Shown: positions 18,070 to 51,305, counted from the first letter of the stretch. The stretch is 64,000 bases of DNA from Candidatus Cloacimonadales bacterium (GCA_963662275.1 OY759316.1:544001-608000), one strand, 5' to 3'. Notes: generated by a model from the letters alone, not told the origin. Numbers and translations: made by a program.

Positions 18070-18081
18070 CTGCCCTCTATT

Positions 18082-18738: not shown

Positions 18739-18750
18739 TTATTATTCCCA

Positions 18751-21051: not shown

Positions 21052-21081
21052 AATACTTAATCTACCTTTGAATTGTCTTTG

Positions 21082-22671: not shown

Positions 22672-22677
22672 ACTCAG

Positions 22678-22758: not shown

Positions 22759-22788
22759 ATTAAGTCCAAATCGTAGAGAAGCTAGTTA

Positions 22789-25332: not shown

Positions 25333-25660
25333 ACATACTCCATTTATTCATTATTTACTTTTGTATATTTTTCCAAATTTTCTATTTATTCTCAAAAAAG
25401 GTGACTCTTCTTTCTAGAATGACTCTACTCAATGTAAAGGGAATATCTGGAAAGCTAGCATTCAATACCTATGTTAAGAAAGAATTAACCCCATCCGAAT
25501 CATCTATTTATCTTTGAGAAATTTAAAATGCAGTTGATTTTATTTAATACTCAACTGTAAAGGAAAAAAAAAGTGAAGAAAAAAACCGTCAAGATAATTC
25601 ATCTGACTACCTCGATAGATTCCTTACGCTGTTGTTTGTTCCGCTTACATCATGGCAATT

Positions 25661-27265
25661 TTACTCAGGAGGAATTTGTTCATCTGTTTTTTCCGCCGAG
25701 TAACCCTTTGGAACAATTTCAGAAACTACATAATTCTTCATTTTACGGGGACTCAATAAACTGAGAATTAACAGAATGTCGTCTTTTTTAAAAATGTGAG
25801 TTACCCATAGAATTCCATATACTGCCCCAAAATACAAGAAAGGAAAAATAAAACGGATGTAATGTCCGGATTGTCCAAAAGCCATTTGGGGGGTAACTTC
25901 GGGGTTGAGAATCATATATCTGAAATAATACATGGGATTCCCTAATATGAAACGGTAGATAAAGAACATGATCACTGATATTGAAATAATTAGAGTAGAG
26001 ACAGGTAAATTTGTAAACAAATTCAGACTGGGTATTTTCTTTTTTGCATAATACCGATTCCAAACAGCAGTCATAATATACGTGGCTAAAAGTGCTATTG
26101 CTGCTCCATGAACAGCCATATTCAACATGGAAGGATGAATAAAGAAAACTAATATCGCTACAAAAAAAACAACCGTGATGATATTCCAGACAGCATCCAG
26201 GACAAAGAAGCCCATACCTGTCAGGATATTTCCATAGGGCATTGATTGCATATCTATATATAAACCCAATGTGATTAAGCTCAGTGGAATTACAGAAGGT
26301 AAGTACTTCGTACCTAATAACCAATATACAATCGTATCGGAATAAATAATGATGAACATCACTGCTGGTAAAACAATAAAATCAGAGAATCTTTCAAAAA
26401 TAGTAATCTTGGCTTTGATAAACTCCCAATCTTGGAGAGCAGCAGCTTTAGAGAATAAAGGGAAAAAAAGCATACCAATACTAGCACCAATAATCGATAT
26501 AAATCCCCCTAATCGAAAACTAGCACCATAGTAACCTACCTGCTCGGAATTAGTATAAAACTGGAGTAATACTTTATCCAGGTTAAAAATCATGGAGGAA
26601 GCAAAACCAAGTATCACAACAGGAATTGCGATCTTAAAATATGCTTTAGCAAGTTCCTTATCATAACGACCTCTTGGATACCCTTTGAATAAGTATGTAA
26701 TCCAAACGGCGAGTAACATGATAGATGCTAAATTCACTATTGCTAGCGATTTTGCTCTAAGTCCAATTAAAACAAGGATGATACGGGCAATCTGCGATAA
26801 AATGTTACGAACAAGCTCAGGGATATCCTGTTTCGCTTGTTCTACACGCGCCGCAAAAGTAGTTTTAGCTACTCCTATTAAAGCTTGAATACTGTTTGTT
26901 AATGTAAAAACAATGATCACAAAGATATGGTCAGAAGATTCAAAATTCGTATGTAGTATGAATTTCTGAAACGCAAAAAATCCCATTGTAACAAGGATAA
27001 ATAAGATTGTAGTTAAATAATTCAAGTTTCGATAAGTTGTGACGCAATCTCCGAGATTCCTTCCTTCCGAGATCATCTTCATATGAGCACTACCCAAACC
27101 GAAAGTCGAAATAAAAGAAAACATGTTTACATAAGATAAACCGAATGCAATAGTTCCTAATACTGATGGTCCGGCAACTCTTGCCACAATAATACTTGCT
27201 ACCATTTGCACAAATTGACCAACGATCTGAGTCGAGTAGCTCAGAACAAATTTCTGTTTTAACAC
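25661..27265 (-). CDS. wzx: Wzx-type oligosaccharide flippase
   Basis: Many TM segments; ARVAGPSVLG, DKVLLQ...VGYYGAS. Confidence 0.82.
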   Translation of the reverse strand: MLKQKFVLSYSTQIVGQFVQMVASIIVARVAGPSVLGTIAFGLSYVNMFSFISTFGLGSAHMKMISEGRNLGDCVTTYRNLNYLTTILFILVTMGFFAFQKFILHTNFESSDHIFVIIVFTLTNSIQALIGVAKTTFAARVEQAKQDIPELVRNILSQIARIILVLIGLRAKSLAIVNLASIMLLAVWITYLFKGYPRGRYDKELAKAYFKIAIPVVILGFASSMIFNLDKVLLQFYTNSEQVGYYGASFRLGGFISIIGASIGMLFFPLFSKAAALQDWEFIKAKITIFERFSDFIVLPAVMFIIIYSDTIVYWLLGTKYLPSVIPLSLITLGLYIDMQSMPYGNILTGMGFFVLDAVWNIITVVFFVAILVFFIHPSMLNMAVHGAAIALLATYIMTAVWNRYYAKKKIPSLNLFTNLPVSTLIISISVIMFFIYRFILGNPMYYFRYMILNPEVTPQMAFGQSGHYIRFIFPFLYFGAVYGILWVTHIFKKDDILLILSLLSPRKMKNYVVSEIVPKGYSAEKTDEQIPPE

Positions 27266-27359
27266 TTTTTTATTTTATCCTTTCCGTTGTAGGGAGCATC
27301 TGCCTATTTTGCATATAGTTATAAGATAGGTTAAGTTATGAAATTTCTATCATTATACT

Positions 27360-28358
27360 CTATTTACCAGGAGTTAGATACTTCTGTAACTTGGCTATAA
27401 TCTTGAAACTTAGTTTTGAAGTCACCATATGATAGAATGGAACAACATGATTCGTTATCTCTAACTTATAGAAAGCGAGCTGAGGAAGATTTTCTTCATC
27501 AATTACACATAAATCAATGTAGGAGAATCCATTTTGCTTAGCCCAAGCTATGCTCTCCCAATCGATGGCTTCAGAGAGACCAATGGATGGTGCATTATAT
27601 CGAACTGCTCCAGCCCAAAGATGCATATAAAACTTGTTTCCAATAACGATATTACCAGCAAGAACTTCACCATCCCTTTCGGCAACAATAATGCATGCTT
27701 GATTTTTGGGAGCATAATAATCTATTACTTTACGATAATAATCATCCGGTTTATCCGGTCTATTGATTTTTTGATAGAGATCTTTGATGCAAGGTAAGAG
27801 TATTTCTAATCCTTCAGCCCCATACCTCTTCATGACAACGCCTTCTTTTTGAGATTTCCTGACTCGTTTTCGTCGTGATGGTTTCAGTGAGTTATTCCAA
27901 ATGTCTTCTTCTGTTTGAGAAAGGTCTATAATCGGTGTTGACAAGCGTTTTACGGGAAGTTTTGTTTGTTGAAATGAATCAGTTGGAAATTGAATGGAAG
28001 AAAAATAAATCCCCGATTCATTTATACCGTACTTCATGCCTTGTATCAATTCGTCATGAGTAACCATAGAAGAATTAAAAATCCATCCTCCAAAGGGAAC
28101 ACTTAAATGTGTTGGACTTGAATAAGAATACTTTAAAAAACCTCGCTTTTCCGTATGCATGGGGCAAAATCCAATCATCGTACCAGTTGAGGATAGAGCA
28201 ATCCAGTAAGACAGTTCTGTATTAAAAGTTTCCTGAACGATCTGGTTAAATTTGGTTTCATGAAAGATTAATCCACCGAACTCGACATTTATTTTTTCGA
28301 TTTTCTGGATTTCATCTTGAGATAGATCAGTATATTGTTTTCGAATCATTTTTATCAT
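27360..28358 (-). CDS. FemAB/FemX-like double-GNAT protein
   Basis: IIDLSQTEEDIW...RKRVRKSQKEGV, WESIAWAKQNGFSYIDL; ATGA overlap with upstream GT2 and GGAGG RBS. Confidence 0.75.
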   Translation of the reverse strand: MIKMIRKQYTDLSQDEIQKIEKINVEFGGLIFHETKFNQIVQETFNTELSYWIALSSTGTMIGFCPMHTEKRGFLKYSYSSPTHLSVPFGGWIFNSSMVTHDELIQGMKYGINESGIYFSSIQFPTDSFQQTKLPVKRLSTPIIDLSQTEEDIWNNSLKPSRRKRVRKSQKEGVVMKRYGAEGLEILLPCIKDLYQKINRPDKPDDYYRKVIDYYAPKNQACIIVAERDGEVLAGNIVIGNKFYMHLWAGAVRYNAPSIGLSEAIDWESIAWAKQNGFSYIDLCVIDEENLPQLAFYKLEITNHVVPFYHMVTSKLSFKIIAKLQKYLTPGK

Positions 28359-29278
28359 ATAAAATGCCTCCATGTTAATTGATGGTTCCTAACTCCCCAG
28401 TATAAACCAGAGATTAGACCTCGACATTGATTTATTGCAATATCCAGTTTGAATGAAAATATGTTTTTTAATATATTTTTTACAAGTCTGGGAAAATACT
28501 CATGGAAATATCGTTTAAAAAACTCTGGAGTCTGATGCATCATGATCACAAGCATCCGGTTTCTAGCATCATAATATGCCTTTATACCTGAATTTTTTCC
28601 AATTGTCATACTGGCTTTGTGCCATAATTTCGCATAAGGAGTATAGTATATTTTGAAACCATTTTTTTTTGCTCTGGCTTGCCATTCAAAATCTTCTGCC
28701 TGAAGGAAAAAATTAAGATCATATCCACCAGTAATTTCGTACATCTCCCTTTTAACTAACCAGAAGATATCATCACAAAAAGCCCTTTCAGCGATTTGAT
28801 CATATTGACCCAGATCAATTTCGTTACTACCCATGGAACTTCCGCTCCAATATACAGGATGTATTTCCCTTCCCACAGTTTGAAGAACTGTTGGTTTATC
28901 AAAATGATAAACTTTTCCAATCACGAAACCAATACATGTTTCCGTGATAGCAACTCTCACGAGTTCAGAAATGATATGTTCATCTACCTTTACATCATTA
29001 TTGGTAATCAGGGAAAAGTCCGCTTTTTGCTCTTCAAAAGCATATTTCATACCGATATTGAAACCACCGGAATACCCCAGATTAATTTCAGAACGAATAA
29101 TTTTGACACTAGGAAAATTAGCCTTTAGATAATCCACTGATCCATCTGACGATCCATTATCAATGACAACTACTTCAAAGTTGTCGTAATCATTTGCTAA
29201 ATATGAGGAGACAGCATCTTCTAAAAGATTTTTACCATTATAATTTAACATCAGAACAATGATGCGAGGATTTGACAA
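28355..29278 (-). CDS. Glycosyltransferase family 2
   Basis: LNYNG, VIDNGSSDGS, NLGYSGGFN, NNDV, FFLQAED. Confidence 0.9.
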   Translation of the reverse strand: MSNPRIIVLMLNYNGKNLLEDAVSSYLANDYDNFEVVVIDNGSSDGSVDYLKANFPSVKIIRSEINLGYSGGFNIGMKYAFEEQKADFSLITNNDVKVDEHIISELVRVAITETCIGFVIGKVYHFDKPTVLQTVGREIHPVYWSGSSMGSNEIDLGQYDQIAERAFCDDIFWLVKREMYEITGGYDLNFFLQAEDFEWQARAKKNGFKIYYTPYAKLWHKASMTIGKNSGIKAYYDARNRMLVIMMHQTPEFFKRYFHEYFPRLVKNILKNIFSFKLDIAINQCRGLISGLYWGVRNHQLTWRHFI

Positions 29279-35438: not shown

Positions 35439-36197
35439 TTATTGCGCAGAATATCCACCATCGATAACCAAATTAGAGCCTGTAATCCAACGTGACCGAT
35501 TGGAAAGAAAAAAAACTGCTGCATCGGCAATATCTTCAGGAAGACCTAGACCAAGAGGATGTCGACTAATGATATCATCTACAGACTCTTTGGATAGATT
35601 CGAAAAAAGATTCTGTACCAATTCTGTTTGTACAATTGCTGGTGAAATGCAGTTTACCCGAATTCTTTTTGTAGCGTATTCCAAAGCAAGTGCTTTTACA
35701 CCGGATATTAAAGCTCCCTTGCTGCTGCAATAGGCAACTTTTCCCGGTTCTCCTAATAAGCCCATGACAGAAGATATAAAAACGAGACTTACCCCATCTG
35801 GCTGCATGTTTTTCTTTTTAATTATCTGTTTTGAAAGTTCAAAACCTGCTACAACATTAAGCGAATAAATTTTTTCATAATCAATTGGATCCGTCATTGG
35901 AAAAGGCTTAGTCATTTCTGTTCCGGCTGAATGGATAAAACCAGAAATTCTCCCTACTTCTTTTACAGCATTTTCAATTATTTCTGGAATCAATTCGTAA
36001 TTCGTAATATCAACTGAGTAGTTTCGATTGTTTATACCTTTTAACAACTGCATAGTATCGTTTAATCTCTTCTGATCTCTTCCGAGAAGGATTAAATTAG
36101 CTCCGAGATTACTGCAACTGATAGCACATGCTCTTCCAATTCCAGATGAAGCACCAGAAATTACGATGGTTTGGGATGATAAGTCGATAAATTTCAT
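35439..36197 (-). CDS. FabG-like short-chain dehydrogenase/ketoreductase
   Basis: SGASSGIG, HSAG, YCSSK, IRVNCISP, WITGSNLVIDGG. Confidence 0.87.
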   Translation of the reverse strand: MKFIDLSSQTIVISGASSGIGRACAISCSNLGANLILLGRDQKRLNDTMQLLKGINNRNYSVDITNYELIPEIIENAVKEVGRISGFIHSAGTEMTKPFPMTDPIDYEKIYSLNVVAGFELSKQIIKKKNMQPDGVSLVFISSVMGLLGEPGKVAYCSSKGALISGVKALALEYATKRIRVNCISPAIVQTELVQNLFSNLSKESVDDIISRHPLGLGLPEDIADAAVFFLSNRSRWITGSNLVIDGGYSAQ

Positions 36198-36462
36198 AGC
36201 TGCTTAACCCTTGAATGCATATTCTTATAGAAATCCATAAAATTCCTTTATTTTCGATAATTATTATAAAATTGCATCTATATAATTTATTCGGAATATG
36301 TCCAGATATTTCATTTTTTGAACTATTTCAAGACTACTGTATTCGTTTCTGCTTATCCTCTTAGATCAAGTAGGATGAATTCCAACTCTTAAGCAAAATA
36401 GTTCTTGTTATTTCTCTCTATTTGTGATTTCTAATCTCGTAAATAGCAGGTGTCTTCATTTA

Positions 36463-36517
36463 TAATGTAGGGATAATCTAGGGATAATCTAGACTTTGTT
36501 ATGTTATCTTTAGTTTA
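36463..36517. repeat. 11-bp tandem repeat x3 with degenerate inverted arm, related to 9458 element
   Basis: TAATGTAGGGA/TAATCTAGGGA/TAATCTAGACT then TATGTTATCTTTAGTTTA (13/18 to the inverted unit). Confidence 0.75.
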
Positions 36518-36692
36518 TTGTCCTTTTGTAATTTTGTAATCCGAACTTTTTGATTTATGAGGTATCAAAGGATAAATCGATCATATCTGTGAGAGAAAAT
36601 ATCCAAAAAAGATGAAAATCATTGACATCAATTTAAGATAGCAACAATTCGTCTTTAAAAACACATAGAAGTGTTGAATTGGAGATAGAGCT

Positions 36693-37694
36693 ATGCCAGG
36701 ATGTAAAATATCAATGATTGAGACATATTTTCCCAAAAAAACTGTCACGAATGAAGATTTGTCACAAGAGTTTCCCGATTGGTCACCTCAGAAAATTGAA
36801 AAAAAAATTGGTATCGCAGAAAGACATGTCACTATTGAAAACGAAACTGCTGTGGATCTTGCTCGAGAAGCCTGTCAAAAGTTATTTCTGATAGAAGATA
36901 AATCAAAAATAGATTTCTTGCTTCTTTGCACTCAAAGTCCTGATTATCTGCTTCCTACTTCAGCATGCATTCTTCAGGATCAATTGGGACTTCCAACGAC
37001 AATAGGTGCATTGGATTTTAATCTTGGCTGTTCAGGGTTTGTTTATGGTTTAGCTCTTGCCAAGGGCTTGATCAGCGCTAATATTGCAAAAAATGTTCTT
37101 CTCATAACATCAGAAACTTATTCAAAACACATACATCCTCAAGATAGAGGAAATCGAAGCATCTTCGGAGATGGGGCAGCAGCATGCATTGTATTTGATT
37201 CTGATGATAACGGGATTTTTGATTTTGAACTAGGTACTGATGGGAGAGGATGGGAAAATTTAATTATCCGCAATAAAGGAATGAGAAATTCTTCCATAAA
37301 TAACTCAGAAGATTGGATTGATGAATCGGGATCAATTCGAAATGACAATAATCTGTATATGAATGGTCCAGAAATCTTCAATTTTACTATTGAAGCTGTT
37401 CCTAAATTAATTGAAGAAGTATTGAAAAAGAATAAAGTTGCACTTGCTGATGTGGATTATTTTATTTTCCATCAGGCAAATCAATACATGCTGAATTATC
37501 TCAGAGATATCATTGGAATACCTGAGAGTAAGTTTTATTTAAATATGATGAATACAGGTAACACTGTTTCAGCAACGATTCCTATTGCCTTGAAGGACGC
37601 ATTGGAAAAGATGTTAATAAAAAAAGGTGATAGGGTACTTTTAGCTGGTTTCGGTGTTGGTTATTCGTATGGTTCAACCATAATTACAATATAG
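36693..37694 (+). CDS. Ketoacyl-ACP synthase III family protein (glycan-cluster type)
   Basis: TQSPDYLLP, LGCSGF (Cys), FGDGAAA, FHQAN (His), GNTVS (Asn), GFGVG. Confidence 0.88.
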   Translation: MPGCKISMIETYFPKKTVTNEDLSQEFPDWSPQKIEKKIGIAERHVTIENETAVDLAREACQKLFLIEDKSKIDFLLLCTQSPDYLLPTSACILQDQLGLPTTIGALDFNLGCSGFVYGLALAKGLISANIAKNVLLITSETYSKHIHPQDRGNRSIFGDGAAACIVFDSDDNGIFDFELGTDGRGWENLIIRNKGMRNSSINNSEDWIDESGSIRNDNNLYMNGPEIFNFTIEAVPKLIEEVLKKNKVALADVDYFIFHQANQYMLNYLRDIIGIPESKFYLNMMNTGNTVSATIPIALKDALEKMLIKKGDRVLLAGFGVGYSYGSTIITI

Positions 37695-37708
37695 ATTGAG
37701 GAGATAAA

Positions 37709-37939
37709 ATGGTTATCAATCAGTTTCTTAATGATCTTAAAGATCTACTTGAATTGTCTGAAGATATCGATCTGAATACAGATCTCAAATCACTTGATGA
37801 ATTTGACTCTATGGCTATTATGTCTTTAGTTGCATTCTTACATAAAAAATTTGGAAAGCAATTCAATGCAAGGCAACTGAATAATATTACTACTGTACAG
37901 TCTTTAGTTGACCTAATAGGAAATGATAGTTTTAATTAG
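37709..37939 (+). CDS. Acyl carrier protein
   Basis: 76 aa acidic, FDSMAIM phosphopantetheine site, TTVQSL; GAGGAG RBS. Confidence 0.88.
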   Translation: MVINQFLNDLKDLLELSEDIDLNTDLKSLDEFDSMAIMSLVAFLHKKFGKQFNARQLNNITTVQSLVDLIGNDSFN

Positions 37940-38022
37940 ATAAAAGAGAATATGCTAAAATGATTCGAGTTACCATAGGAAAAAATGGAAAATTGTTTGT
38001 GTGCGGATAAAAGGCTGAATTT

Positions 38023-39426
38023 ATGTTTCTAAGTTGGCCATATTTCCCAATATTAATTTTTTCGGCAATTATTTACTGGGCACTTCCGAAACAAAGAAAT
38101 CGAAATCTATTTCTGACAGCAGTGAGTTTAGCATTCATCTATTGGTTTGATAAAAATGCTGTTATTGTCGTCATCGGTTTAACTCTATTTACCTTTTTAA
38201 TTGCTTGGTGGATCGAAAAAAGCCAAGGTGGAAAACTTGCACATACGATAGGTATTGTAGGTTTACTACTTGTTCTTGCCATATTTAAGTATTTGGGATT
38301 TTTATCGGGGACTTTAAACAGTCTATTTAGCTTTGTACATCAACTTCCAGTTTTTCAATTTGAGAAATTATTTCTTCCGTTGGGTATTTCATACATTACA
38401 TTTAAATACATAAGTTATTTAACAGATATACAATGGGGGCTTTTCAAAAAAGGTAACTTTCTTGATTTACTTTGCTATGGAAGTTTGTTTACAATTTTCG
38501 CGGCAGGTCCTATTGAACGTTTTGATCGCATGAAACCTCAATTCGAATCTGATAAAATTGTCTTTAAATTGAATTACGTTGAAGTTGCTTTTGAAAGGAT
38601 TATCTTTGGTCTTTTTCAGAAACAAATATTAGCTGATCGTTTGGCTGAGTATACATTGCAATTCTGGTATTATCCAACAACGTATACTCTAGTATCTCAG
38701 ATAATAGTGCTATTTGGATATGCACTCCAAATGTATTTAGATTTTTCCGGTTATAGTAGTATAGCAATCGGTTCATCTAGATTGTTTGGATTGACAATTA
38801 TGGAGAACTTCAATAATCCTTATTTGGCATCTAATATTAGTCAATTCTGGAGGCGATGGCACATTTCCTTGTCAGAGTGGATTCGTGATTATATATTCTT
38901 CCCTCTGTATCAATACAAATCATATAGTTTTTGGCTTTTCGTATGTGTTCCGATTATTGCAATGGCTTTATGTGGGCTTTGGCATGGAGCATCCTGGAAT
39001 TATGTACTTTGGGGTATTTGGCATGGAGTAGGAATAGCTATTTATCATTATTGGAATAAGTACAAGAAGAAACATAAAAAGTTTGAATTAGCTCTAAATA
39101 CTCCAATAATTTCCCGAACGGCTATTCTTGTTACATTTTTCTATGTTTCGTTGGGGGGGATTATTTTTCGTACAACAAATCTCGGTCATTTAACAAATTT
39201 ATTTTTTCACCATGGCGAGCAAGAATTAAGTATTCGAGGCAAAGCACTTATATTAGTTTTGCTGCTATGCATATTCCTTGTACCCAATTATCATAAGATA
39301 TTACAGAAAATCTCGATGAAAAGATATTACCCATATGTGAAATGGTTTGTGTTATTTGTTATCATTGAATCTATCTTCTTTTTATCACCAGCCACTTCTG
39401 CGCTTTTTATTTATGCAGGATTCTGA
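38023..39426 (+). CDS. MBOAT acyltransferase (AlgI/DltB family) with fused C-terminal FIYAGF motif
   Basis: PLGISYITF, AGPIER, DFSGYS, ENFNNPY, FWRRWHISLS, GLWHGA; ends ALFIYAGF. Confidence 0.92.
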   Translation: MFLSWPYFPILIFSAIIYWALPKQRNRNLFLTAVSLAFIYWFDKNAVIVVIGLTLFTFLIAWWIEKSQGGKLAHTIGIVGLLLVLAIFKYLGFLSGTLNSLFSFVHQLPVFQFEKLFLPLGISYITFKYISYLTDIQWGLFKKGNFLDLLCYGSLFTIFAAGPIERFDRMKPQFESDKIVFKLNYVEVAFERIIFGLFQKQILADRLAEYTLQFWYYPTTYTLVSQIIVLFGYALQMYLDFSGYSSIAIGSSRLFGLTIMENFNNPYLASNISQFWRRWHISLSEWIRDYIFFPLYQYKSYSFWLFVCVPIIAMALCGLWHGASWNYVLWGIWHGVGIAIYHYWNKYKKKHKKFELALNTPIISRTAILVTFFYVSLGGIIFRTTNLGHLTNLFFHHGEQELSIRGKALILVLLLCIFLVPNYHKILQKISMKRYYPYVKWFVLFVIIESIFFLSPATSALFIYAGF

Positions 39427-40346
39427 TGAAAAAGCTCATTATTTACATTCTTTTCATCCCTTGCATTATCACCATGAATAATCTAGTTAATCTGACTATC
39501 AGTAATAACTTCGCTGAGGATGTATTTACGAATGAATATCCATATCAATGGGTGGAAAAATTACATGTAAAACCTAAGATAGTTCTTGTGGGTAGCTGTA
39601 CAACTCAAACTGGCTATTCTGCAAAAGAGCTACAGAAATTATTAGGATTACGAGATGGAGAAGTGATTAATCTTGCCACCGCTCCTAGTAGTCCAGAAAT
39701 TACGTACTTTATTGTGAAGAAGTATATTGATAAATTTGATGATAACGCATTAATATTGTATGGTTTTGACCCAGAAATTCTTAGTGAAGTTTATTATCAT
39801 TATTTGAATATTTTATTATCGCACTGGTCATTAAGGGAAAGAATTAGTTATATCTCATCACATAACACTGATTTTCCAACAACTATGAATATTGTTAATG
39901 GGGGGAATGTTTTCATGAATATCGAGGACATTTTTGTTACTAACAGTAAGGATACCAAAGGGGATGATTATGGAAGTACTAAGTATTTAAGAGGATTAGA
40001 TCCAACTATACCTGTCGAGCAATCTTTTTGTCTTTCTACATTTCATATTTCTCAGCGTTTTTTACAGAATTTCGCAAAACTAGATAATCTTGTATATCAA
40101 AAACACAGAAAAATGATCGTCTATTATCCAGCGTATTCAAATCGCTTTATGAAGCAATATATTGAATTAAATTATCATAACAATATTCAGACTCAATTAC
40201 ATAAAGTCATAAAGTATAGCCGGTTTGAAGACCAGTTAACAACACACCCAGATTCATGCTATCTTGATTTGATTCACATTTCACTAAAAGGAAAGAAAAC
40301 AAATCTACCAAGAATCCTCAGGTTAATACAGAAATCAGGAAACTGA
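39426..40346 (+). CDS. Membrane-anchored SGNH-like (DltD/AlgJ-position) protein
   Basis: N-terminal TM, VLVGSCTT block I, VINLA, C-terminal DLIH; TGATG coupling to MBOAT. Confidence 0.6.
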   Translation: MKKLIIYILFIPCIITMNNLVNLTISNNFAEDVFTNEYPYQWVEKLHVKPKIVLVGSCTTQTGYSAKELQKLLGLRDGEVINLATAPSSPEITYFIVKKYIDKFDDNALILYGFDPEILSEVYYHYLNILLSHWSLRERISYISSHNTDFPTTMNIVNGGNVFMNIEDIFVTNSKDTKGDDYGSTKYLRGLDPTIPVEQSFCLSTFHISQRFLQNFAKLDNLVYQKHRKMIVYYPAYSNRFMKQYIELNYHNNIQTQLHKVIKYSRFEDQLTTHPDSCYLDLIHISLKGKKTNLPRILRLIQKSGN

Positions 40347-40439
40347 TATTAATATGAAAAAGAGCATTCCAATTGAATTCATGATCCTAATAACAATCAA
40401 GATGAATCAGTGGTTAGCAGTGGCTCGGAAATTTAAGTT

Positions 40440-41840
40440 ATGTTTTTAAGTTGGTTCTATTTTCCTTTTTTAGGGATAGTAGCTTTCATTTATTGGATGC
40501 TTCCTAAACAAAAAATACGGAATATTTTTCTATCATTCGTTAGTTTTGTATTCATTTATTGGTTTGATAAAAAATCCATTGTGGTCATTCTTGGTCTCAC
40601 GATATTCACTTTTGCGATAGCTAGTTGGATTGAAAAAAGGAATGGAGGAAAACTTGCTCATACTATCGGAGTAATTGGATTAATTATCATACTTGCCATA
40701 TTTAAATACTTGGGATTTTTATCGGGAATTCTAAATAGCTTAGTGAGCTTTGTGCATCAACTTCCGAGTTTTCAAATAGAAAAATTATTTCTTCCTCTAG
40801 GTATTTCATATATTATATTTAAGTATATTAGTTATATCACTGATATTTATTGGGGGACTTTAAAGAAAGGAAGTTTTGTTGATCTGTTATGCTACGGGAG
40901 TTTATTTACAATTTTAGAAGCTGGACCTATTGAACGTTTTGAAAGGATGCAGCCTCAACTAGAATCAAGTAAGATCATATTTGATGTTAAACATGTTGAA
41001 GTAGCAATAGAAAGGATTATCTTCGGACTTTTATTAAAACAAGTAATCGCAAACCGATTAGCTGAATACACGATCACATTCTGGCAAGATCCATCTAAAT
41101 ACTCCTTAGTAGCCCAGGTCACAGCACTATTTGGATATTCCCTTCAGATTTATTTCGATTTTGCCGGTTACAGTAGTATTGCTATCGGATCATCTAGATT
41201 ACTCGGTTTGAAGATAATGGAGAATTTTGATAATCCGTATCTTTCATCTAATATCAGCCAATTTTGGCGTCGTTGGCACATTTCATTGTCCGATTGGATA
41301 CGAGATTATATCTATTTCCCACTGTCCCAAAATCAATCCAATAGATTCTGGATTCTGATTTGTGTACCGATAATCTCAATGTCTTTGTGTGGATTGTGGC
41401 ATGGTGCATCATGGAATTTTGTGATATGGGGAGCATGGCACGGTGTTGGGATTGTTATTTATCAAAATTGGAATAAGTATAAGAGACAGCACAAAAAATC
41501 AGTATTAGCTCTGAATACTCCTTTAATTTCTTTTGTTGCTATGATAATTACATTTATCTATGTTTCATTGGGATGGATGTTATTTCTCTCTACAGATATC
41601 TCCCATGTGACAGATATTCTGATCAAACATGGCGGGAAAGCATTAAGTATACGCTCTACAGTACTCATTTTAGTACTGTTGCTATGCATTTTTCTCGTAC
41701 CCAATTATAATAACATATTGAAGAAATTATCAGAGAAAAGATACTACCAATTTTTGAAATGGCTTACTTTGTTTATTATCTTGGAATGCATTTTAAATTT
41801 ATCATCAGCCAAGACGCTTTTTATTTATGCAGGTTTCTGA
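40440..41840 (+). CDS. MBOAT acyltransferase, tandem paralog, fused FIYAGF motif
   Basis: Same motifs as 38023 gene; ends TLFIYAGF. Confidence 0.92.
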   Translation: MFLSWFYFPFLGIVAFIYWMLPKQKIRNIFLSFVSFVFIYWFDKKSIVVILGLTIFTFAIASWIEKRNGGKLAHTIGVIGLIIILAIFKYLGFLSGILNSLVSFVHQLPSFQIEKLFLPLGISYIIFKYISYITDIYWGTLKKGSFVDLLCYGSLFTILEAGPIERFERMQPQLESSKIIFDVKHVEVAIERIIFGLLLKQVIANRLAEYTITFWQDPSKYSLVAQVTALFGYSLQIYFDFAGYSSIAIGSSRLLGLKIMENFDNPYLSSNISQFWRRWHISLSDWIRDYIYFPLSQNQSNRFWILICVPIISMSLCGLWHGASWNFVIWGAWHGVGIVIYQNWNKYKRQHKKSVLALNTPLISFVAMIITFIYVSLGWMLFLSTDISHVTDILIKHGGKALSIRSTVLILVLLLCIFLVPNYNNILKKLSEKRYYQFLKWLTLFIILECILNLSSAKTLFIYAGF

Positions 41841-42778
41841 TGAAAAAGTTAATTTTTTTAGTTATCTTCATACCCTGTACTATTATCCTGAATAATGTAA
41901 TTAATCTGATGATTAGTAGTAACTTTGCTGACTATGTGTATACAAAAGAATTCCCCTATCAATGGGTTACTAAACTATCTGTAAGTCCCAAAATAATCTT
42001 GGTAGGTAGTTGTACGACGAGAAGAGCTTACTCGTCAAAAGCGCTACAGGAGGCATTAGGATTGCAGGATGGGGAAGTAATAAATCTTGCGACAACTCCA
42101 AATAATCCAGAGATCACATATTTTCTGGTGAACAAGTACATTAATAGCTTTGCTAGTAATGCTCTCATTTTGTATGGTATCGACCCCTTTATCCTTAGTG
42201 AGATTTATTATAAGAATTTTAACATTCTATTGTCTCAGTGGAGTTTGAAAGAACGATTCGATTATGTTGCTGCAAATAATAGTGATTTCCCCACTACAAT
42301 GAATATCGTAGATGGAGGTAACGTTTTCATGAATATAAAGGAAATTGTCATGAATAACAACACTGATACAAAGCTAAATGATTTCGGCAGCACTATTCCA
42401 AGTAAGGTTGCAGAATCTGATCAACCTCCACTCAATCAATGGTTTTATCTTTCTACTTATAATATATCTCAGCGTTTTATGGAGAATGTCTCAAAACTCG
42501 ATAAATTAGTATATCAAAAACACCGAAAAATGATTGTCTATTATCCCGTTTATCCGGATTGTTATATGAAGCAATATGAAAAGATCAATTGTCATAACAG
42601 CATTCAGGCTCAATTACATAAAGCTATTCAACTAAATCGTTTCGATGACCAATTATCAACTTATCCTGATTCCTGCTACGTTGATCTTGTACATATTTCT
42701 CAAAAAGCGAGAAATGATTTTTTAGCAAGTATAATTGATGTCATTAAGAGATCCGGATTCCAAGTTACAACAAAATAG
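41840..42778 (+). CDS. Membrane-anchored SGNH-like protein, tandem paralog
   Basis: Start set at TGATG overlap (MKKLIF); ILVGSCTT, GEVINLAT, DFPTTMNIV, DLVH shared with 39426 gene. Confidence 0.6.
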   Translation: MKKLIFLVIFIPCTIILNNVINLMISSNFADYVYTKEFPYQWVTKLSVSPKIILVGSCTTRRAYSSKALQEALGLQDGEVINLATTPNNPEITYFLVNKYINSFASNALILYGIDPFILSEIYYKNFNILLSQWSLKERFDYVAANNSDFPTTMNIVDGGNVFMNIKEIVMNNNTDTKLNDFGSTIPSKVAESDQPPLNQWFYLSTYNISQRFMENVSKLDKLVYQKHRKMIVYYPVYPDCYMKQYEKINCHNSIQAQLHKAIQLNRFDDQLSTYPDSCYVDLVHISQKARNDFLASIIDVIKRSGFQVTTK

Positions 42779-42894
42779 CAATACTGCAACCGATAACTAG
42801 CCTTTTATACACAAAATGAATTGTGGTTCATTGAAGATGAATGTGAAGTTCAGTACTTTTCTTAGTCGGATTCAATAAATGAGAACAATATAAC

Positions 42895-43881
42895 TCACTG
42901 TTTGAAGGTTTTGAATAGATCTAAACCTAGTACTTGATTGCCTAGAGTATTAAAATGTCCACCAGTGATAAAATAACGTCCATCATAACTAATAGAACCA
43001 TCATATCCAAAATTAATTCCTGCTTTTCGGCAATCAACGTCAATTATTTTATTCCATTTATCGCTCATTATTGATAAGCACAAAAACCTATCACCATATT
43101 GTCTATGCATTTCATGAAGATTTGATAACAATATGAGATATGCCTCTTGATTAAATTCAAGAGATGAATAAGGACGATAATAGATTTTTTCTGCTTTTGT
43201 TGAACCTTTAACGATACCCGGTTTTCGGAAACTGACTCTTACCAGATTTACTAAAGATGATTTATTACAGATCAACTTCACAATATCGAATTTCCAGTCA
43301 TGAGTTTCCTGATCAAAATTATCTGGTAATACGTATGATTCAGACTTAGCATTTAGCATATTTGTTACGGTTCCATCATTAATAATTAAGATAACATAAT
43401 CAGGTTTAATTTTTTTTGACCAATGAATCAATCGGCACCATCCCTCAAATGGTATTTGTCCACCAAGACCGATATTGATAACTTGAAAATCTTTAGATAT
43501 ATGCTTACTTAATAATTCTTGGAATACCGATGTGGACATCTCCTTTGGAGCTGTGGCTCTTGCTTCAACATATGAGTTGCCCATAACATAAATGTACTTG
43601 GAATTATCGTTTATAACTACATCTGTTCCCTGAAGCCCAAGATTGTTTTTCCTATAGACATGATATCCACCTTCCAATGAATAATAACTCGCATGAGGTA
43701 AAAACTCGTTTTCGTAAAGAGGAGCATTGGGAGTTTTATCATTCGGATAGATATGATATGATTTTCCAAACCCTAAAGTCGGGAAGTGTGTTACTACTCT
43801 TACTAAAAATTCAACACATACAAATGAAATGGCGGTAATGATAATATATAGAAGTGCTATTTTGAGTTTCGAAGTCAACAT
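42895..43881 (-). CDS. SGNH/GDSL family membrane-anchored protein (AlgJ/PatB-like position)
   Basis: N-terminal TM ...VEFLVR, NNLG, VMGNSYVEA, VINIGLGG, KPDYVIL, GHFNTLGNQ; alternative start 43914. Confidence 0.75.
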   Translation of the reverse strand: MLTSKLKIALLYIIITAISFVCVEFLVRVVTHFPTLGFGKSYHIYPNDKTPNAPLYENEFLPHASYYSLEGGYHVYRKNNLGLQGTDVVINDNSKYIYVMGNSYVEARATAPKEMSTSVFQELLSKHISKDFQVINIGLGGQIPFEGWCRLIHWSKKIKPDYVILIINDGTVTNMLNAKSESYVLPDNFDQETHDWKFDIVKLICNKSSLVNLVRVSFRKPGIVKGSTKAEKIYYRPYSSLEFNQEAYLILLSNLHEMHRQYGDRFLCLSIMSDKWNKIIDVDCRKAGINFGYDGSISYDGRYFITGGHFNTLGNQVLGLDLFKTFKQ

Positions 43882-43918
43882 ACAAAACTTCCTAGTATAT
43901 AAATATACATACATCTAA

Positions 43919-45067
43919 TTACCTCAACCACCAAGTTCCAACGGTGACGAAAACAAAAGTAATAACAACACTCACATACTGAAACCATACTGCTTCAGCA
44001 GCTTTTGAGAGAGAACGATGTTGACGTTTGAATTGGCTCCATAATCTCCAGATAGCAATTCCTACTCCATGCCAGATACCCCATATTACAAAATGCCAAG
44101 CTGCACCATGCCACAGACCGCATATTCCCATTGCTATGATGGGTGTACATACAAACATCCAGAATTTGCTTGTGCTTTTTTGTGATAGAGGAACAAAAAT
44201 ATAATCTCTTATCCAATCAGACAAGGATATGTGCCAACGTCTCCAGAACTGACTGATATTCGGAGCAAAAAAAGGGTTATCGAAATTTTCCATGATTGTC
44301 AAACCATACAATTTGGATGAACCAATGGCAATATCGCTATAACCTGAAAAATCAAAATAGACTTGCAGGGAAAAACCAAACAAAGCTGCTATTTGAATTA
44401 AAGATGAATAATGTTCCGGTCCTCTGAAAACCGGATTGATAAGATATCCTAACCAATCTGCCAATACATATTTCTTGATTAAACCATAAACGATTCTTTC
44501 AAAACCTACACTGATAAAAGCGGTTTGAAATTGAATACGTCGACTTTCTAACTGTGGTTTTAGGCGAACGAATTGCTCAATTGGACCAGCAATAAAAATT
44601 GTATAAAGAGAACCATAGCAAAGAAAATCCAGAAATTTACCCTTTTGAATGATCTCCCATTTTATATCAGTTAAATAGCTAATATATTTGAAAACAATAT
44701 AGGATATACCCAAAGGTAGAAACAGCTTATCTATTTGAAATATGGGTAGGATATGAATAAAACTCATCAAACTATTTATGATACCGCTTAGGAATCCAAG
44801 ATACTTAAAAATAAGAAGAACAAGTATCAGACCGATAATACCCATTGTGTGGACGTAATGTTTACGGATTTTTTCCATCAAGATAGCTATCCCATAGGTA
44901 TATAAGGTTAATCCGATGACTACCAATACCGCATTAGGATCAAGGTATCCGATAAAAATGAAGCTAATCAATGTTAAGAATGTATTACGCCACTTTTGAT
45001 TGGGAATTAACCAATAAAGTAAAACTGTAATGATTACAAATGGGAAAAAGAGAACCTTACCCAACAT
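43919..45067 (-). CDS. Short MBOAT acyltransferase (DltB-like, no C-terminal Tyr motif)
   Basis: PLGISY, AGPIE, DFSGYSDIAIG, FWRRWHISLS, GLWHGA; ends VGTWWLR; ATG after GGAG RBS. Confidence 0.9.
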   Translation of the reverse strand: MLGKVLFFPFVIITVLLYWLIPNQKWRNTFLTLISFIFIGYLDPNAVLVVIGLTLYTYGIAILMEKIRKHYVHTMGIIGLILVLLIFKYLGFLSGIINSLMSFIHILPIFQIDKLFLPLGISYIVFKYISYLTDIKWEIIQKGKFLDFLCYGSLYTIFIAGPIEQFVRLKPQLESRRIQFQTAFISVGFERIVYGLIKKYVLADWLGYLINPVFRGPEHYSSLIQIAALFGFSLQVYFDFSGYSDIAIGSSKLYGLTIMENFDNPFFAPNISQFWRRWHISLSDWIRDYIFVPLSQKSTSKFWMFVCTPIIAMGICGLWHGAAWHFVIWGIWHGVGIAIWRLWSQFKRQHRSLSKAAEAVWFQYVSVVITFVFVTVGTWWLR

Positions 45068-45114
45068 AATAAGTTTCTCCAAGATCTATAATCTGGTTGA
45101 TGCTATGATAATGA

Positions 45115-45273
45115 TTAGAAATTTGCATAGAAAAACGGATTGCTTGTTGTTACAATTATATGGTTAAAAGCAATAGAAGCAATAGCCAAAATAAAGAGAA
45201 AGCTTAAAATGAAATACTTGAGTAATGAAGCCAATAGTGGCTTTGTCTCGCTTAACTTTGAAAATAATTTCAT
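45115..45273 (-). CDS. DltX-like small membrane acyl-shuttle protein (not in ORF track)
   Basis: 52 aa MKLFSKLSETKPLLASLLKYFILSFLFILAIASIAFNHIIVTTSNPFFYANF; one TM, terminal FFYANF, purine-rich RBS, lies between ACP and MBOAT. Confidence 0.85.
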   Translation of the reverse strand: MKLFSKLSETKPLLASLLKYFILSFLFILAIASIAFNHIIVTTSNPFFYANF

Positions 45274-45334
45274 CTTCAACCTTCCCTTTTGTTAGCATAT
45301 GGGATACAATTGCATATATCATAAAATGAATAGA

Positions 45335-45583
45335 TTAATCCTCAAATTTATCCATCCCGATTAGATTCATTAAATCACCAATCGTACCAACTTCATTCAG
45401 TTTTTTTGCTATAATATTGATTCCAAATCTTTTACTGATAAAAGATACGAGTGACACAACCGATAAGGAATCATAACCTTCGATGCTTGCTAGTTTGGTA
45501 TTAACAGTTATTTTGGGCGCGTCAGGATCTGAAGAATCAGCAAATTCATTTAACAACTCTTCGATAAATCGGTCTTTTTTCAT
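45335..45583 (-). CDS. Acyl carrier protein
   Basis: YDSLSVV Ppant site, TIGDL; ATG after AAGGAG. Confidence 0.85.
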   Translation of the reverse strand: MKKDRFIEELLNEFADSSDPDAPKITVNTKLASIEGYDSLSVVSLVSFISKRFGINIIAKKLNEVGTIGDLMNLIGMDKFED

Positions 45584-48400: not shown

Positions 48401-48961
48401 TTAGTCTTGAATTAAGGGATGATTCTGGTTGAAATTAAACAATGACATGAGAAGTACATCATGATAGCAGGAATTATGATAATGCTGTGCTTTTAATGTT
48501 CCTTCCAGGATAAATCCATTCTTTTCAAAAACTCTTCTCGAAGCAGTGTTATCAGAAGTAATAAAGCATGTAAGCTTATTCAGATTTAAATTCCCAAATG
48601 AAAAATCAATCAGCAATTGCAATATCTCTGTTCCGATTCCTTTGCCATGAGTTTCATGTTCTCCAATGACTATCAAAGGATTTGCATTCCGGTTCACATA
48701 ATTGATATTCGTTAGTCCCGTGAAACCCAAAAGACGAGATGTTTCATTATCGATCACAGAAAAATAGATATTTTTATTACTTGTAGAACTAACTACTGAA
48801 TTCATCCAGTCTTCTTCCTGCTGTATTGTAACAGGATATGGATGCATCATGGCTGAGTACTTATAATTTGCATTATTATGCCATTCATTAATTAAATCCA
48901 GATCTTCGCTCTTCATCTGCCTAAAAGAAATATGCTCTCCATTCAGTAGATATTTGCTCAC
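48401..48961 (-). CDS. GNAT N-acyltransferase (PseH/RimJ-like)
   Basis: IGEHETHGKGIGTE, LNLNKL, DNTASRRVFEKNGFILEG. Confidence 0.85.
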   Translation of the reverse strand: MSKYLLNGEHISFRQMKSEDLDLINEWHNNANYKYSAMMHPYPVTIQQEEDWMNSVVSSTSNKNIYFSVIDNETSRLLGFTGLTNINYVNRNANPLIVIGEHETHGKGIGTEILQLLIDFSFGNLNLNKLTCFITSDNTASRRVFEKNGFILEGTLKAQHYHNSCYHDVLLMSLFNFNQNHPLIQD

Positions 48962-48984
48962 TAATAGGCTCCTTTTAAAAAAAA

Positions 48985-50172
48985 CTAATCACTCAAAATA
49001 TACTGTGATATATAATGGGTGATGCTATTTGATTGTATTTCCAATTTCTCACGCTTATCGCTACTGATTATAAAATATCCATATCTGTCAAGACTATTCT
49101 TCACTATCCAAGTCATGCTGTTGACCATTAAATCGCACGTAAATTCTTCAATACAAGGAAACTTCTGCTTCAACTCTTGTTCATTTGGAAGATGTTTTAT
49201 CATCTGGTTTGTGGGTAAATTAAGATAAGTTATCATCGAGGCTTTATTCTCAATAGAATATTGGGGTTGATCACCAATAGCTATTAAGATGACTTGCTTT
49301 TCCATATTCACGGTTGTTGATAACGGAACGAGACGAGAAGTAATATAATCTCCTCCCAGCCTTGGACCAATCTCAATAATCGTAATTTTACCATCATGTA
49401 TTTTCAATTCAGCATGAATTGCAGTATTATTTAAACCAGCCTGTGTTAAAACTTTCTGCAACAGAACGTGGAGTGAGAGTTTGAAGTCCATTGTGTACTT
49501 TGATGGTTGAATATGTCCTAATTCGACATTATACGGAGGGGGAGTAACGATTTTATCGGTTATCTGTATCAGTGTTAGCACATTCTTGTATATAAATGCT
49601 TCTACACTGATTTCATCTCCTTCCAGATATCCTTCCATAATAAACTCATCAATAGTAGAATATCGCAAGGTTTCTTCAACAGATTTCAAAAGAAAATCAT
49701 ATGAATCACATTTTATAACCCCTCGACTTCCGGAATTTCGAAGTGGTTTAATAATGACTGGGAATGCTATCTCATCTTCCCTGGGAATAGTATTTATATG
49801 ATAAACTCCTCCCTGGGCATGCCGAAATGAATTAGCTTTTAAAAATTCTTTGAATTTACCTTTATTAAGAACTAATTCAACGCTTTCATAAGAAGGAAAT
49901 ACTAAATTCATTGCTTTTGCAATACGCGCCATCATTGAGATCGGATGATCTGTCGCAGCCGTTACAACACCCGAAATATTATGTTTTTGTGCAAGTTGAA
50001 GCGTATATTCATAGTCATTTCCAGCTACCACGTAGAAATAGTCAGCAATGGTATTGGCTTCTGCATTAGGATTCGGATCAATGACAACCGATTCAAAACC
50101 CATCTCTTTTGCCGTTTGTATGATCGAAATTTGGAGACCACCTCCTCCAAAAATCATGATGGCTTTATTCAC
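48985..50172 (-). CDS. ATP-grasp ligase (L-amino-acid ligase-like)
   Basis: GGGGLQ, PVIIKP..SGSRGV, GDEISVE, ITDK, HAELK, IEIGPRLGGD. Confidence 0.82.
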   Translation of the reverse strand: MNKAIMIFGGGGLQISIIQTAKEMGFESVVIDPNPNAEANTIADYFYVVAGNDYEYTLQLAQKHNISGVVTAATDHPISMMARIAKAMNLVFPSYESVELVLNKGKFKEFLKANSFRHAQGGVYHINTIPREDEIAFPVIIKPLRNSGSRGVIKCDSYDFLLKSVEETLRYSTIDEFIMEGYLEGDEISVEAFIYKNVLTLIQITDKIVTPPPYNVELGHIQPSKYTMDFKLSLHVLLQKVLTQAGLNNTAIHAELKIHDGKITIIEIGPRLGGDYITSRLVPLSTTVNMEKQVILIAIGDQPQYSIENKASMITYLNLPTNQMIKHLPNEQELKQKFPCIEEFTCDLMVNSMTWIVKNSLDRYGYFIISSDKREKLEIQSNSITHYISQYILSD

Positions 50173-51305
50173 ATCTGTTCCAAAATTAATGCAAGTTCTG
50201 AGACTATTAGATCAATCTGTTGTATCGTTAATCCTGAATAGATTGGAAGCGTAATTTCGTGGTCAGTGGCAAAATCGGTTTCAGGTAAATCGGCATGATA
50301 GTTTTTATATATTGAGAATCTATGTGCCGCTGGATAATGTATGCTTGTTTGAATTCCTATTGTATGTAACTTGTCACGCACTCTATCACGATACTCATAA
50401 TCACCATTATTTAAGATAATGGGGAATATGTAATTAGAACAGAATTCCTGATGATCTTTAAAGGGAATAGTAATATTAGGAATTGTACTCAGCTTTTCCA
50501 GATAATACTTACGGAGTATCATTCTTTTTTGTAGATCAACGTATAATTTGCGAAGTTGAACGATGGCAATGGATGCTCGGATATCATCCATCCGATAATT
50601 ATAGCCTAAAGCTACAACATCATAGGAAGTCGAATGTCCGGAAGCTCGTTCATATGACATGGAAGTCATTCCATGAGAGCGGAGCAATTTGATTTTGGCA
50701 GCATACTCATCGTTATTTGTAATGATCATACCGCCTTCACCTGTAGAAATATTCTTATTGGAAAAAAAACTGAAACAACCTAAATCTCCAATTGTTCCTA
50801 ATTTTTGATGATGATATTCGGAAAGAGGTCCATGACAGGCATCTTCAATTACCTTTAAATTATGTTTTTCAGCAATTGCCATAATTTCATCCATCTTGCA
50901 GGGGAAACCAGCAAAATGCATGACAGCAATGGCTTTTGTACGAGGAGTAATCTTCTTTTCGATATCAACGGGATCTATCGTTAAGTCATCTTTCGAAATA
51001 ATATCACAAAAAACGGGAGTTGCCCTGACATAAAGTATAGAATTCACGGTAGCTACAAATGTCATGGCAGGAACAAGAACCTCATCCCCGTCTCCAATGC
51101 CTGCAACTTCAAATGCCAAATGCAATGCCACCGTACAGTTTGTTAAGGCAATTGCATGCTTGACTCCAAGCATGGATGCAAACATGTTTTCCAGTTCAAT
51201 ATTCTTTGGACCTGTCGAAATCCACTTGGAATGTATTGTCTCTAAGGCAGCTTTTTCTTCTTCATGGTCAAAATTCAAATCAAAAAGTGGTATATTATAA
51301 CTCAT
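50169..51305 (-). CDS. DegT/DnrJ/EryC1/StrS sugar aminotransferase
   Basis: NCTVALHLA, TFVAT, IEDACH, FSFFSNKNISTGEGG, GYNYRM. Confidence 0.92.
   Translation of the reverse strand: MSYNIPLFDLNFDHEEEKAALETIHSKWISTGPKNIELENMFASMLGVKHAIALTNCTVALHLAFEVAGIGDGDEVLVPAMTFVATVNSILYVRATPVFCDIISKDDLTIDPVDIEKKITPRTKAIAVMHFAGFPCKMDEIMAIAEKHNLKVIEDACHGPLSEYHHQKLGTIGDLGCFSFFSNKNISTGEGGMIITNNDEYAAKIKLLRSHGMTSMSYERASGHSTSYDVVALGYNYRMDDIRASIAIVQLRKLYVDLQKRMILRKYYLEKLSTIPNITIPFKDHQEFCSNYIFPIILNNGDYEYRDRVRDKLHTIGIQTSIHYPAAHRFSIYKNYHADLPETDFATDHEITLPIYSGLTIQQIDLIVSELALILEQM

Follow-up and report, generated by a model that had tools for sequence, protein, structure and literature searches.

A candidate Dlt-like acyl-export island in a surface-glycan locus of a Cloacimonadota-like bacterium, probably supplied by a KAS III-loaded acyl carrier protein

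Analysis of a 64,000-nt stretch of DNA (hereafter the window) from a Cloacimonadota-like bacterium pointed to the presence, within a Wzx-type glycan locus, of a 9-kb acyl-export island that would work in the manner of the Dlt system, with a β-ketoacyl-acyl carrier protein synthase III (KAS III) taking the place of DltA at least for the operon coded on the plus strand. On the evidence of the comparisons presented below, it is considered probable (roughly 0.55) that an acyl carrier protein (ACP) loaded by this KAS III feeds at least the channels of MBOAT1 and MBOAT2, two of the three membrane-bound O-acyltransferases (MBOATs) of the island, the group supplied probably being acetoacetyl or 3-hydroxybutyryl. 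As the group actually exported, 3-hydroxybutyryl is a tentative assignment.

The relevant genes (Table 1) occupy positions 35439..45583 of the window, within a 43-kb surface-glycan locus coded on the minus strand, and every gene named in a preliminary description of this DNA was found where it had been placed. On the plus strand, the gene for KAS III is followed by those for ACP37, MBOAT1, SG1, MBOAT2 and SG2, the successive gaps being 14, ~83-84, -1, 93 and -1 bp, and this block runs opposite to the rest of the glycan locus. The minus strand carries, in order, the genes for ACP45, a 52-aa peptide, MBOAT3 and SG3, with that for a short-chain dehydrogenase/reductase (SDR) lying past the plus-strand block. 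The locus also encodes amino-sugar enzymes, and the surrounding Wzx-type surface glycan is the probable acceptor.

Table 1. Features of the acyl-export island and its surroundings (positions counted from the first nucleotide of the window)
Feature	Position	Strand	Remarks
SDR/ketoreductase (252 aa; GASSGIG, Y156xxxK)	35439..36197	-	Pfam adh_short_C2
KAS III (333 aa; C113, H260, N290)	36693..37694	+	sister to KAS III of KAS>ACP>SDR>MBOAT>SGNH operons
ACP37 (76 aa, Ser34)	37709..37939	+	next upstream of MBOAT1; 61-64% identity to MBOAT-operon ACPs
MBOAT1 (467 aa; H280, H321; fused FIYAGF, Y464)	38023..39426	+	no GG[NS] loop
SG1, membrane-anchored SGNH/DltD-like (Cys58; D281/H284 intact)	39426..40346	+	
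MBOAT2 (466 aa; fused FIYAGF)	40440..41840	+	tandem duplicate of MBOAT1; no GG[NS] loop
SG2 (312 aa; Cys at nucleophile position)	41840..42778	+	duplicate of SG1
SG3, membrane-anchored SGNH (S114, H320; GxH not DxxH)	42895..43914	-	
MBOAT3 (387 aa; H284, H325)	43919..45082	-	short DltB-like form; ATG 45067 = alternative start; no GG[NS] loop
DltX-like microprotein (52 aa; one hydrophobic helix; C-terminal NPFFYANF)	45115..45273	-	
ACP45 (82 aa)	45335..45583	-	KAS-cassette type, not the ACP76 type usual for the MBOAT subfamily of the window
Initiating sugar transferase, Wzx-type flippase, glycosyltransferases, UDP-sugar dehydrogenase	12811..29278	-	surrounding surface-glycan locus
PIG-L deacetylase, second KAS III, second SDR, hexapeptide acyltransferase	15543..18738	-	context genes
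PseH-like GNAT, ATP-grasp enzyme, DegT aminotransferase	48401..51305	-	context genes

The KAS III, for which the Cloacimonadota provided the nearest named relatives, scored 280 bits against NF006829 (cut-off 249), and the Cys-His-Asn triad previously reported as intact was invariant in 104/104 aligned KAS III rows. A close orthologue was detected in 20/232 genomes of the phylum, that of the present bacterium included, and 20 loci were fetched from the other 19. The order KAS>ACP>SDR>MBOAT>SGNH was recorded in 8/20 of these loci, distributed over 5 genera, 3 families and two clades of KAS III, with a fragmented MBOAT in two of the 8 operons. Tree reconstruction placed the KAS III of the window as sister to five of the operon enzymes (support 0.99), which make up the larger of the two clades, and grouped ACP37 with the ACPs of the same operons (support 0.926). 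Neither a Kbl-like paralog nor an acetate-CoA ligase, both of which are considered below as alternative loaders, was found in the 8 genomes concerned (67-100% complete), so that KAS III is the only loader seen there. In two further loci (L176:6088-10453 and L187), genes for KAS III, ACP and SDR were followed by one for a VimE-like deacetylase (NCBIfam E 9e-27, below cut-off), together with one for a 348-357-aa protein without a family match that ends in an FxYxxF-like motif.

The two ACPs reported previously are both present, each with a DS phosphopantetheine motif, and neither ACP37 nor ACP45 matched the DltC model. The genome encodes one AcpS, a FabD located in the fatty-acid operon (read from its translation) and one carboxyltransferase, which makes ACP activation and malonyl supply plausible. 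The reductase had been described as FabG-like: it is indeed an SDR with a catalytic YxxxK motif, 41-44% identical to the SDRs of the MBOAT operons, but its scores lay below every FabG cut-off (141 bits against 222 for NF009466; 139.5 against 297.75 for TIGR01830) and its identity to the FabG of the genome itself was 29%, and the name FabG was accordingly dropped.

All three MBOATs carry the catalytic His expected of them, with WHISLS and GLWHGA present in each and PF03062 scores above cut-off. Alignment to DltB assigned the catalytic pairs as H280/H321 in both MBOAT1 and MBOAT2 and H284/H325 in MBOAT3, and scores against the DltB model TIGR04091 were 195-211 bits (cut-off 375). The FxYxxF motif, defined in the available text of PMC12148441, where DltX is described as the separate tail of DltB, occurs as the fused FIYAGF with which MBOAT1 and MBOAT2 end and as FFYANF on the 52-aa peptide; MBOAT3 stops before the last two helices and the motif. 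In a sample of 35 other loci encoding MBOATs of the same subfamily, 3 of which were cut by contig ends and excluded from this count, 16 peptide homologues were distributed over 16/18 loci with a short MBOAT as against 0/14 with full-length forms only. The DltX-like peptide noted earlier is therefore real, its distribution not being that of chance, and it would supply the tail missing from MBOAT3 as DltX does for DltB.

A more general indicator of carrier dependence was provided by the segment that follows the WHISL helix, which was surveyed in 104 distinct MBOATs from the collected loci. The P[LIM]GG[NS] loop found there in many homologues is missing from all three MBOATs of the window, and from those of the KAS>ACP>SDR>MBOAT>SGNH operons also. 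An ACP gene lay within 1.1 kb of 0/45 MBOATs with the loop versus 39/59 without, and the ACP-linked proteins were spread over at least 3 clades of the tree. Equivalent counts were obtained from Bacteroidia, where 401 genomes gave 390 matches and 60 regions were drawn from roughly the 70 best of these, most short contigs being skipped. The 64 MBOATs so obtained comprised 55 with the loop (two ITLGGN cases being reassigned by eye) and 9 without: an ACP lay within 1.1 kb of 0/55 and 4/9, and within 5 kb of 1/55 and 5/9, respectively. Loss of the loop thus parallels ACP adjacency in two phyla and several MBOAT clades, with KAS III, Kbl-like, adenylation and FkbH enzymes as the loaders. The two loop glycines align to V305/I306 of Streptococcus thermophilus DltB, equivalent to V301/F302 of the Lactiplantibacillus plantarum enzyme, which are identified as DltC contacts in the available text of PMC9338922. 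At the V305 position, MBOAT1 has Tyr (Y296), a residue found in it alone, the 38 subfamily members otherwise considered having Ser (36) or Gly (2). One subfamily member (L137) retains the loop and has no ACP, and no Kbl-like paralog was found in its genome. Taken together, these comparisons make it likely that the MBOATs of the window are carrier-fed. A predicted complex of MBOAT1 with ACP37, both entered as alignments, scored 0.02 against a mark of 0.32 and was counted neither way.

The split MBOAT/microprotein architecture can itself occur without a carrier protein: three loci (L137, L255 and L257) encode a short MBOAT that has kept the GG loop beside a DltX-like microprotein (37-51 aa), with no ACP nearby. 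Five of the Bacteroidia loci (L330, L337, L340, L346 and L354) have FkbH beside loop-less MBOATs, an ACP being found in four of them.

The partner proteins SG1, SG2 and SG3 gave no Pfam match at 1e-4 and no NCBIfam match, and their identification rests on fold. The model of SG1 (pLDDT 95.6) adopts the SGNH fold (best Z 14.1; PatB Z 11.8; DltD Z 11.2), as does that of SG3 (pLDDT 87.5), which matches TesA/GDSL, while SG2 is 63% identical to SG1. The claim of three membrane-anchored SGNH-like proteins consequently holds for the fold, but the preliminary description did not mention that the catalytic Ser is replaced in SG1 and SG2. In both, Cys58 falls in an alignment column (41 rows) that is Ser in at least 90% of cases, D281/H284 being invariant, and the consensus G289 is also altered in SG2. 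SG3 has kept the Ser of SGNH block I as S114, invariant along with H320 in 25/25 aligned sequences. MBOAT1 and MBOAT2 are 69% identical, which together with the value for SG1 and SG2 indicates tandem duplication of an MBOAT-SG pair.

From these genes, residues, folds, gene orders and trees we infer a route of docking, transfer and export. AcpS would phosphopantetheinylate ACP37, which the housekeeping FabD would then malonylate, and KAS III would form acetoacetyl-ACP from malonyl-ACP37 and a short acyl-CoA, for which acetyl-CoA is the likeliest candidate. The SDR may reduce this to 3-hydroxybutyryl-ACP, a step for which the case is weaker than in those relatives where the SDR gene lies between those for ACP and MBOAT. 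The acyl-ACP would thereafter dock on the loop-less cytosolic helix of MBOAT1 or MBOAT2, as in DltB, His321 would transfer the acyl group onto the Tyr of FIYAGF, the fused tail, by a chemistry proposed from homology to Dlt and PatA, and SG1 and SG2 would take the group over on Cys58 for delivery, beyond the membrane, to the growing glycan. The third channel, consisting of the peptide, MBOAT3 and SG3, is a split DltX/DltB-like unit whose donor could be either ACP45, with the same KAS III as its loader, or ACP76 (vide infra) acting in trans. The relay proposed in the preliminary description, in which an acyl group moves from ACP via the MBOAT His and the FxYxxF Tyr to an SGNH protein and thence to glycan, is thus supported indirectly, as is the existence of KAS III-fed MBOAT operons in other genomes.

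Several observations weigh against supply by KAS III. Within 2.5 kb of the KAS III genes at the best 80 loci from a species collection, an ACP was present in 68 and an SDR in 65, but an MBOAT in only 3, while at least 39 had a hexapeptide, GNAT or DegT gene; no KAS-ACP-SDR-MBOAT operon was found in the 60 Bacteroidia loci. The MBOATs of the window share 27-30% identity with those of the KAS operons and belong to a distinct subfamily, 45-65% identical to MBOAT3, whose 35 other loci encode ACP76 in 27 cases and a 415-aa Kbl-like pyridoxal phosphate (PLP) enzyme in 14. A KAS III cassette lay directly upstream of a subfamily MBOAT in 0/35 of these loci and 0/20 metagenome loci. No local ACP is present in 8/35, which makes feeding in trans plausible, and ACP76, a related ACP82, a Kbl-like enzyme and an acetate-CoA ligase are all encoded elsewhere in the same genome, so that loading in trans is compatible with the want of such a loader in the window.

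The origin of the reductase is a further difficulty. The SDR is transcribed away from the KAS operon and, with ACP45, groups with one and the same set of KAS-ACP-SDR cassettes that have no MBOAT (tree support for the SDR 0.906). In these cassettes ACP and SDR are adjacent, while in the window they lie on the same strand 9.1 kb apart with all of the export genes and KAS III between them; this kinship and separation together suggest insertion of the export genes and KAS III into an older ACP>SDR cassette. By descent, then, the SDR would not be the cognate reductase of KAS III, which weakens the case for a 3-hydroxyacyl group, and acetoacetyl or acetyl is also possible as the group exported. By these comparisons the locus is a mosaic of parts of different descent. 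The earlier proposal of three parallel channels for a locally made KAS/ketoreductase product therefore stands only in part: the clade membership of KAS III and ACP37 favours it, but SDR and ACP45 derive from the cassette type without an MBOAT, the subfamily commonly has another ACP, and two of the channels (MBOAT1-SG1 and MBOAT2-SG2) are duplicates, for which reason the idea of three independent channels was dropped.

The loop signature is open to qualification. No ACP lay within 1.1 kb of 20/59 loop-less MBOATs, and these exceptions, along with the non-independence of related proteins, mean that the counts overstate the association. On account of that non-independence, a Fisher P computed for the survey of 104 MBOATs was set aside. 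PatA and AlgI presumably carry the GG loop, which was seen here only in a protein annotated as AlgI. A plasmid search with an MBOAT of the KAS operons gave 185 matches, of which the 4 inspected all had the loop and no ACP, and one of these lies five genes from an FkbH gene, an arrangement neutral or slightly adverse to the rule. Finally, the presence of Cys58 could be a sign that the two duplicates are decaying.

Many of these points find a place in the main alternative, itself rather unlikely, according to which the MBOATs are ACP-fed by acetyl-ACP76 or acetyl-ACP82 in trans, giving carrier-based O-acetylation, while the local KAS III, ACP and SDR work for the N-acylation of a nucleotide-linked amino sugar in the cytosol by a GNAT or a hexapeptide enzyme. 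The acetyl-ACP would be made either by the Kbl-like PLP enzyme (2-amino-3-oxobutyrate -> glycine + acetyl-ACP) or by the acetate-CoA ligase. The ACP76/Kbl-like context of the MBOAT subfamily, with which the metagenome loci agree, is consistent with this, as are a second Dlt-like module (L144) and a ligase>ACP82>Kbl-like operon (C1:3205758-3209133) in the same genome, ACP76 and ACP82 forming one clade (support 0.974). The 14 loci whose modules include a Kbl-like gene belong to genomes in which the ligase was not found; conversely, the ligase was present in 48/232 genomes of the phylum, none of which has a Kbl-like gene inside an MBOAT module. The PseH-like GNAT, DegT and hexapeptide genes of the window are, moreover, usual neighbours of KAS cassettes, as in the vio and wfp genes. 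What acetylation in trans leaves unexplained is the placement of a KAS III and an ACP of the MBOAT-operon clade just upstream of MBOAT1, on the same strand and against the direction of the locus, and the unique Tyr296 of MBOAT1 at the docking position.

That the MBOATs are ordinary acetyl-CoA users like PatA and AlgI, and the ACP and KAS genes unrelated neighbours, is improbable. The mosaic nature of the locus and the loci in which a split MBOAT and microprotein accompany a GG loop without an ACP would accord with it, as would the statement in the available text of PMC12148441 that acyl-CoA is the donor, with no carrier involved, in non-Dlt MBOAT/SGNH pathways; it is countered by the missing loop in all three MBOATs and by the way in which ACP adjacency follows loop loss across phyla and clades. 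Very improbable is the suggestion that the plus-strand duplicates are decaying or non-catalytic and that only the peptide-MBOAT3-SG3 unit is active: the Ser to Cys58 replacement in SG1 and SG2 and the change of G289 in SG2 could be so interpreted, but both copies are full-length at 63-69% identity, and Cys58, D281/H284, the MBOAT His and the Tyr motif are kept in both, which suggests selection since the duplication.

Modules and operons of the ACP76/Kbl-like kind were recorded at a number of loci. The module L144 (C1:2581113-2586304) comprises genes for a peptide, ACP76, a short MBOAT and an SG3 homologue, and continues with another loop-less MBOAT and then a 358-aa gene. Modules of peptide, Kbl-like enzyme, ACP76, MBOAT and SGNH protein were observed at L113, L114, L116, L117, L119, L120, L122-L124, L132, L136, L138, L139 and L087; each may constitute a Dlt-like relay of which the PLP enzyme is the only visible loader, and the simplest reading of such contexts is that the native donor of the subfamily is acetyl-ACP. 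A housekeeping role as kbl was discarded for the Kbl-like gene, a separate 396-aa copy being present. Operons coding for acetate-CoA ligase, ACP82 and the 415-aa Kbl paralog, often with AcpS, are conserved in the same genome (G000 C1:3200632-3209133; L150) and at L151-L168, and the only AcpS gene of the genome lies in this operon. With what we take to be a threonine-dehydrogenase-like gene often included, the operon suggests a route linking threonine with acetate through an ACP-dependent glycine C-acetyltransferase. A 480-aa ORF, transposase-like as judged from its sequence, lies between the two kbl genes (G000 C1:3203877-3205319). In one of the 20 metagenome subfamily loci, an adenylation enzyme stands in front of ACP76. 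At L111:8943-16770 and L249, likewise, a 498-aa amino-acid adenylation enzyme is coupled with a subfamily MBOAT module, and L111 additionally encodes a GNAT, one further ACP, one further MBOAT and a homologue of SG1 that has Ser.

Among characterised systems, the closest parallel to the proposed KAS III-fed relay is Dlt itself (PMC12148441 and PMC9338922, in the text available; PDB 6BUG, 8JEM), with which the island shares an MBOAT with both His, a dedicated carrier, an FxYxxF microprotein beside a short MBOAT, a membrane-anchored SGNH partner (the SG1 model resembling DltD as noted above) and a carrier-docking helix without a GG loop. It differs in having no DltA, the 53 open reading frames of the window having been scanned and found, as reported earlier, to include neither an adenylation nor an FkbH domain, and 0/6 matches in the genome exceeding the TIGR01733 cut-off; in scores below the cut-off of the DltB model and the lack of a DltC match for either ACP; in its diderm-type host and Wzx-type glycan cluster; and in the fusion of the motif to two of its three MBOATs. 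The locus would thus work in the manner of Dlt without being a Dlt system. To our knowledge, D-alanylation of the teichoic acids of Gram-positive bacteria is the sole case in which a carrier-to-MBOAT route has been elucidated; dlt operons of the DltA type also occur in some Gram-negative bacteria.

PatA/PatB, AlgI/J/X and WssH/I resemble the plus-strand pairs in the fused FxYxxF of MBOAT1 and MBOAT2 and in the adjacent SGNH gene (SG1 again resembling PatB), but are acetyl-CoA systems with neither carrier nor microprotein according to the available text of PMC12148441, whereas the window has both, and no GG[NS] loop. A private KAS III/ACP/ketoreductase set within a glycan locus is also a property of the vio island of Pseudomonas syringae (vioS for KAS III, vioR for the ketoreductase, acp and vioB; PMC3927599) and of wfpC-wfpG of Flavobacterium psychrophilum (PMC6519341), and in the available text of these reports such trios are tied to short 3-hydroxyacyl groups on sugars, namely N-3-hydroxybutyryl and 3,5-dihydroxyhexanoyl. 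There, as far as the descriptions on which the likeness is based extend, the acyl group is placed on a nucleotide-sugar amine in the cytosol by a soluble acyltransferase, whereas in the window an MBOAT-SGNH relay follows the ACP. The FkbH-ACP-MBOAT clusters of Bacteroidia (L330, L337, L340 and L354) similarly have a carrier beside a loop-less MBOAT but differ in their loader, phmmer with one FkbH sequence having found none in the genome studied here; no characterisation of such clusters was found in the literature searched.

In the available text of PMC12148441 (2025), non-Dlt MBOAT/SGNH pathways are stated to be devoid of both a carrier protein and any microprotein of the DltX type. Both are encoded in the present locus and its relatives, with loaders of kinds other than DltA. 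What the present locus contributes is a microprotein, SGNH partners with a Cys nucleophile, the signature of the loop and a Kbl-like loader. No description of KAS III, ACP and MBOAT together was found in the literature searched, outside which lie Schultz 2023 and Ma 2018, either of which may bear on novelty; Schultz et al. 2023 reportedly surveyed the FxYxxF motif. If supply by KAS III is correct, bacteria can build non-acetyl acyl groups on a private ACP and attach them to glycan after export, and the GG-loop signature would offer a simple sequence test to tell CoA users from carrier-protein users among unstudied MBOATs. More speculatively, the MBOAT-SGNH relays of diderms may constitute one modular family, fed by carriers and with interchangeable loaders (KAS III/ketoreductase, Kbl-like, adenylation or FkbH enzymes), that is marked by loss of the GG loop. 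The present locus might then have undergone recent rewiring, in which an MBOAT of the kind associated with Kbl/ACP76 came to stand behind a KAS III-ACP pair and had its docking residue changed to Tyr. A locally built 3-hydroxyacyl group would be exported via a Tyr ester to an SGNH protein with a Cys nucleophile, and the resulting thioester might permit acylation of glycan outside the membrane through ester or even amide bonds.

None of the soluble acyltransferase or aminotransferase genes of the window adjoins KAS III/ACP37. The PseH-like GNAT and DegT genes lie 2.8 and 4.6 kb, respectively, from ACP45, and the products of the gene group to which they belong, including one of the two ATP-grasp enzymes encoded in the window, are possible cytosolic users of an acyl-ACP. 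The hexapeptide gene is 19 kb from the SDR, and with the PIG-L deacetylase, second KAS III and second SDR, the last of these acetoacetyl-CoA-reductase-like, it is likely to form a deacetylate-and-reacylate unit. No ACP gene was found beside the second KAS III/SDR/hexapeptide set (which spans 15543-18069), and the unit might draw on ACP45.

A contig from a public run (X3) covers 30000-49900 with zero differences, a run that may be the source of the window itself. The contigs of 4 sequencing runs gave no joint with a change of strand, so that inversion of the plus-strand block was not seen, and no long terminal inverted repeats were found bounding it. Promoter and terminator counts were those of chance (54 against 57.7 and 4 against 4.6, respectively). 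Elsewhere in the glycan locus are two genes for asparagine-synthetase-like amidotransferases (10927-12807, with a highly diverged second copy at 32653-34470; Pfam E 0.015). Positions 5273-9157 and 54241-56367 encode a gingipain-family C25 peptidase and a Porphyromonas-type peptidylarginine deiminase, both with C-terminal tails of the FlgD/Por-secretion type.

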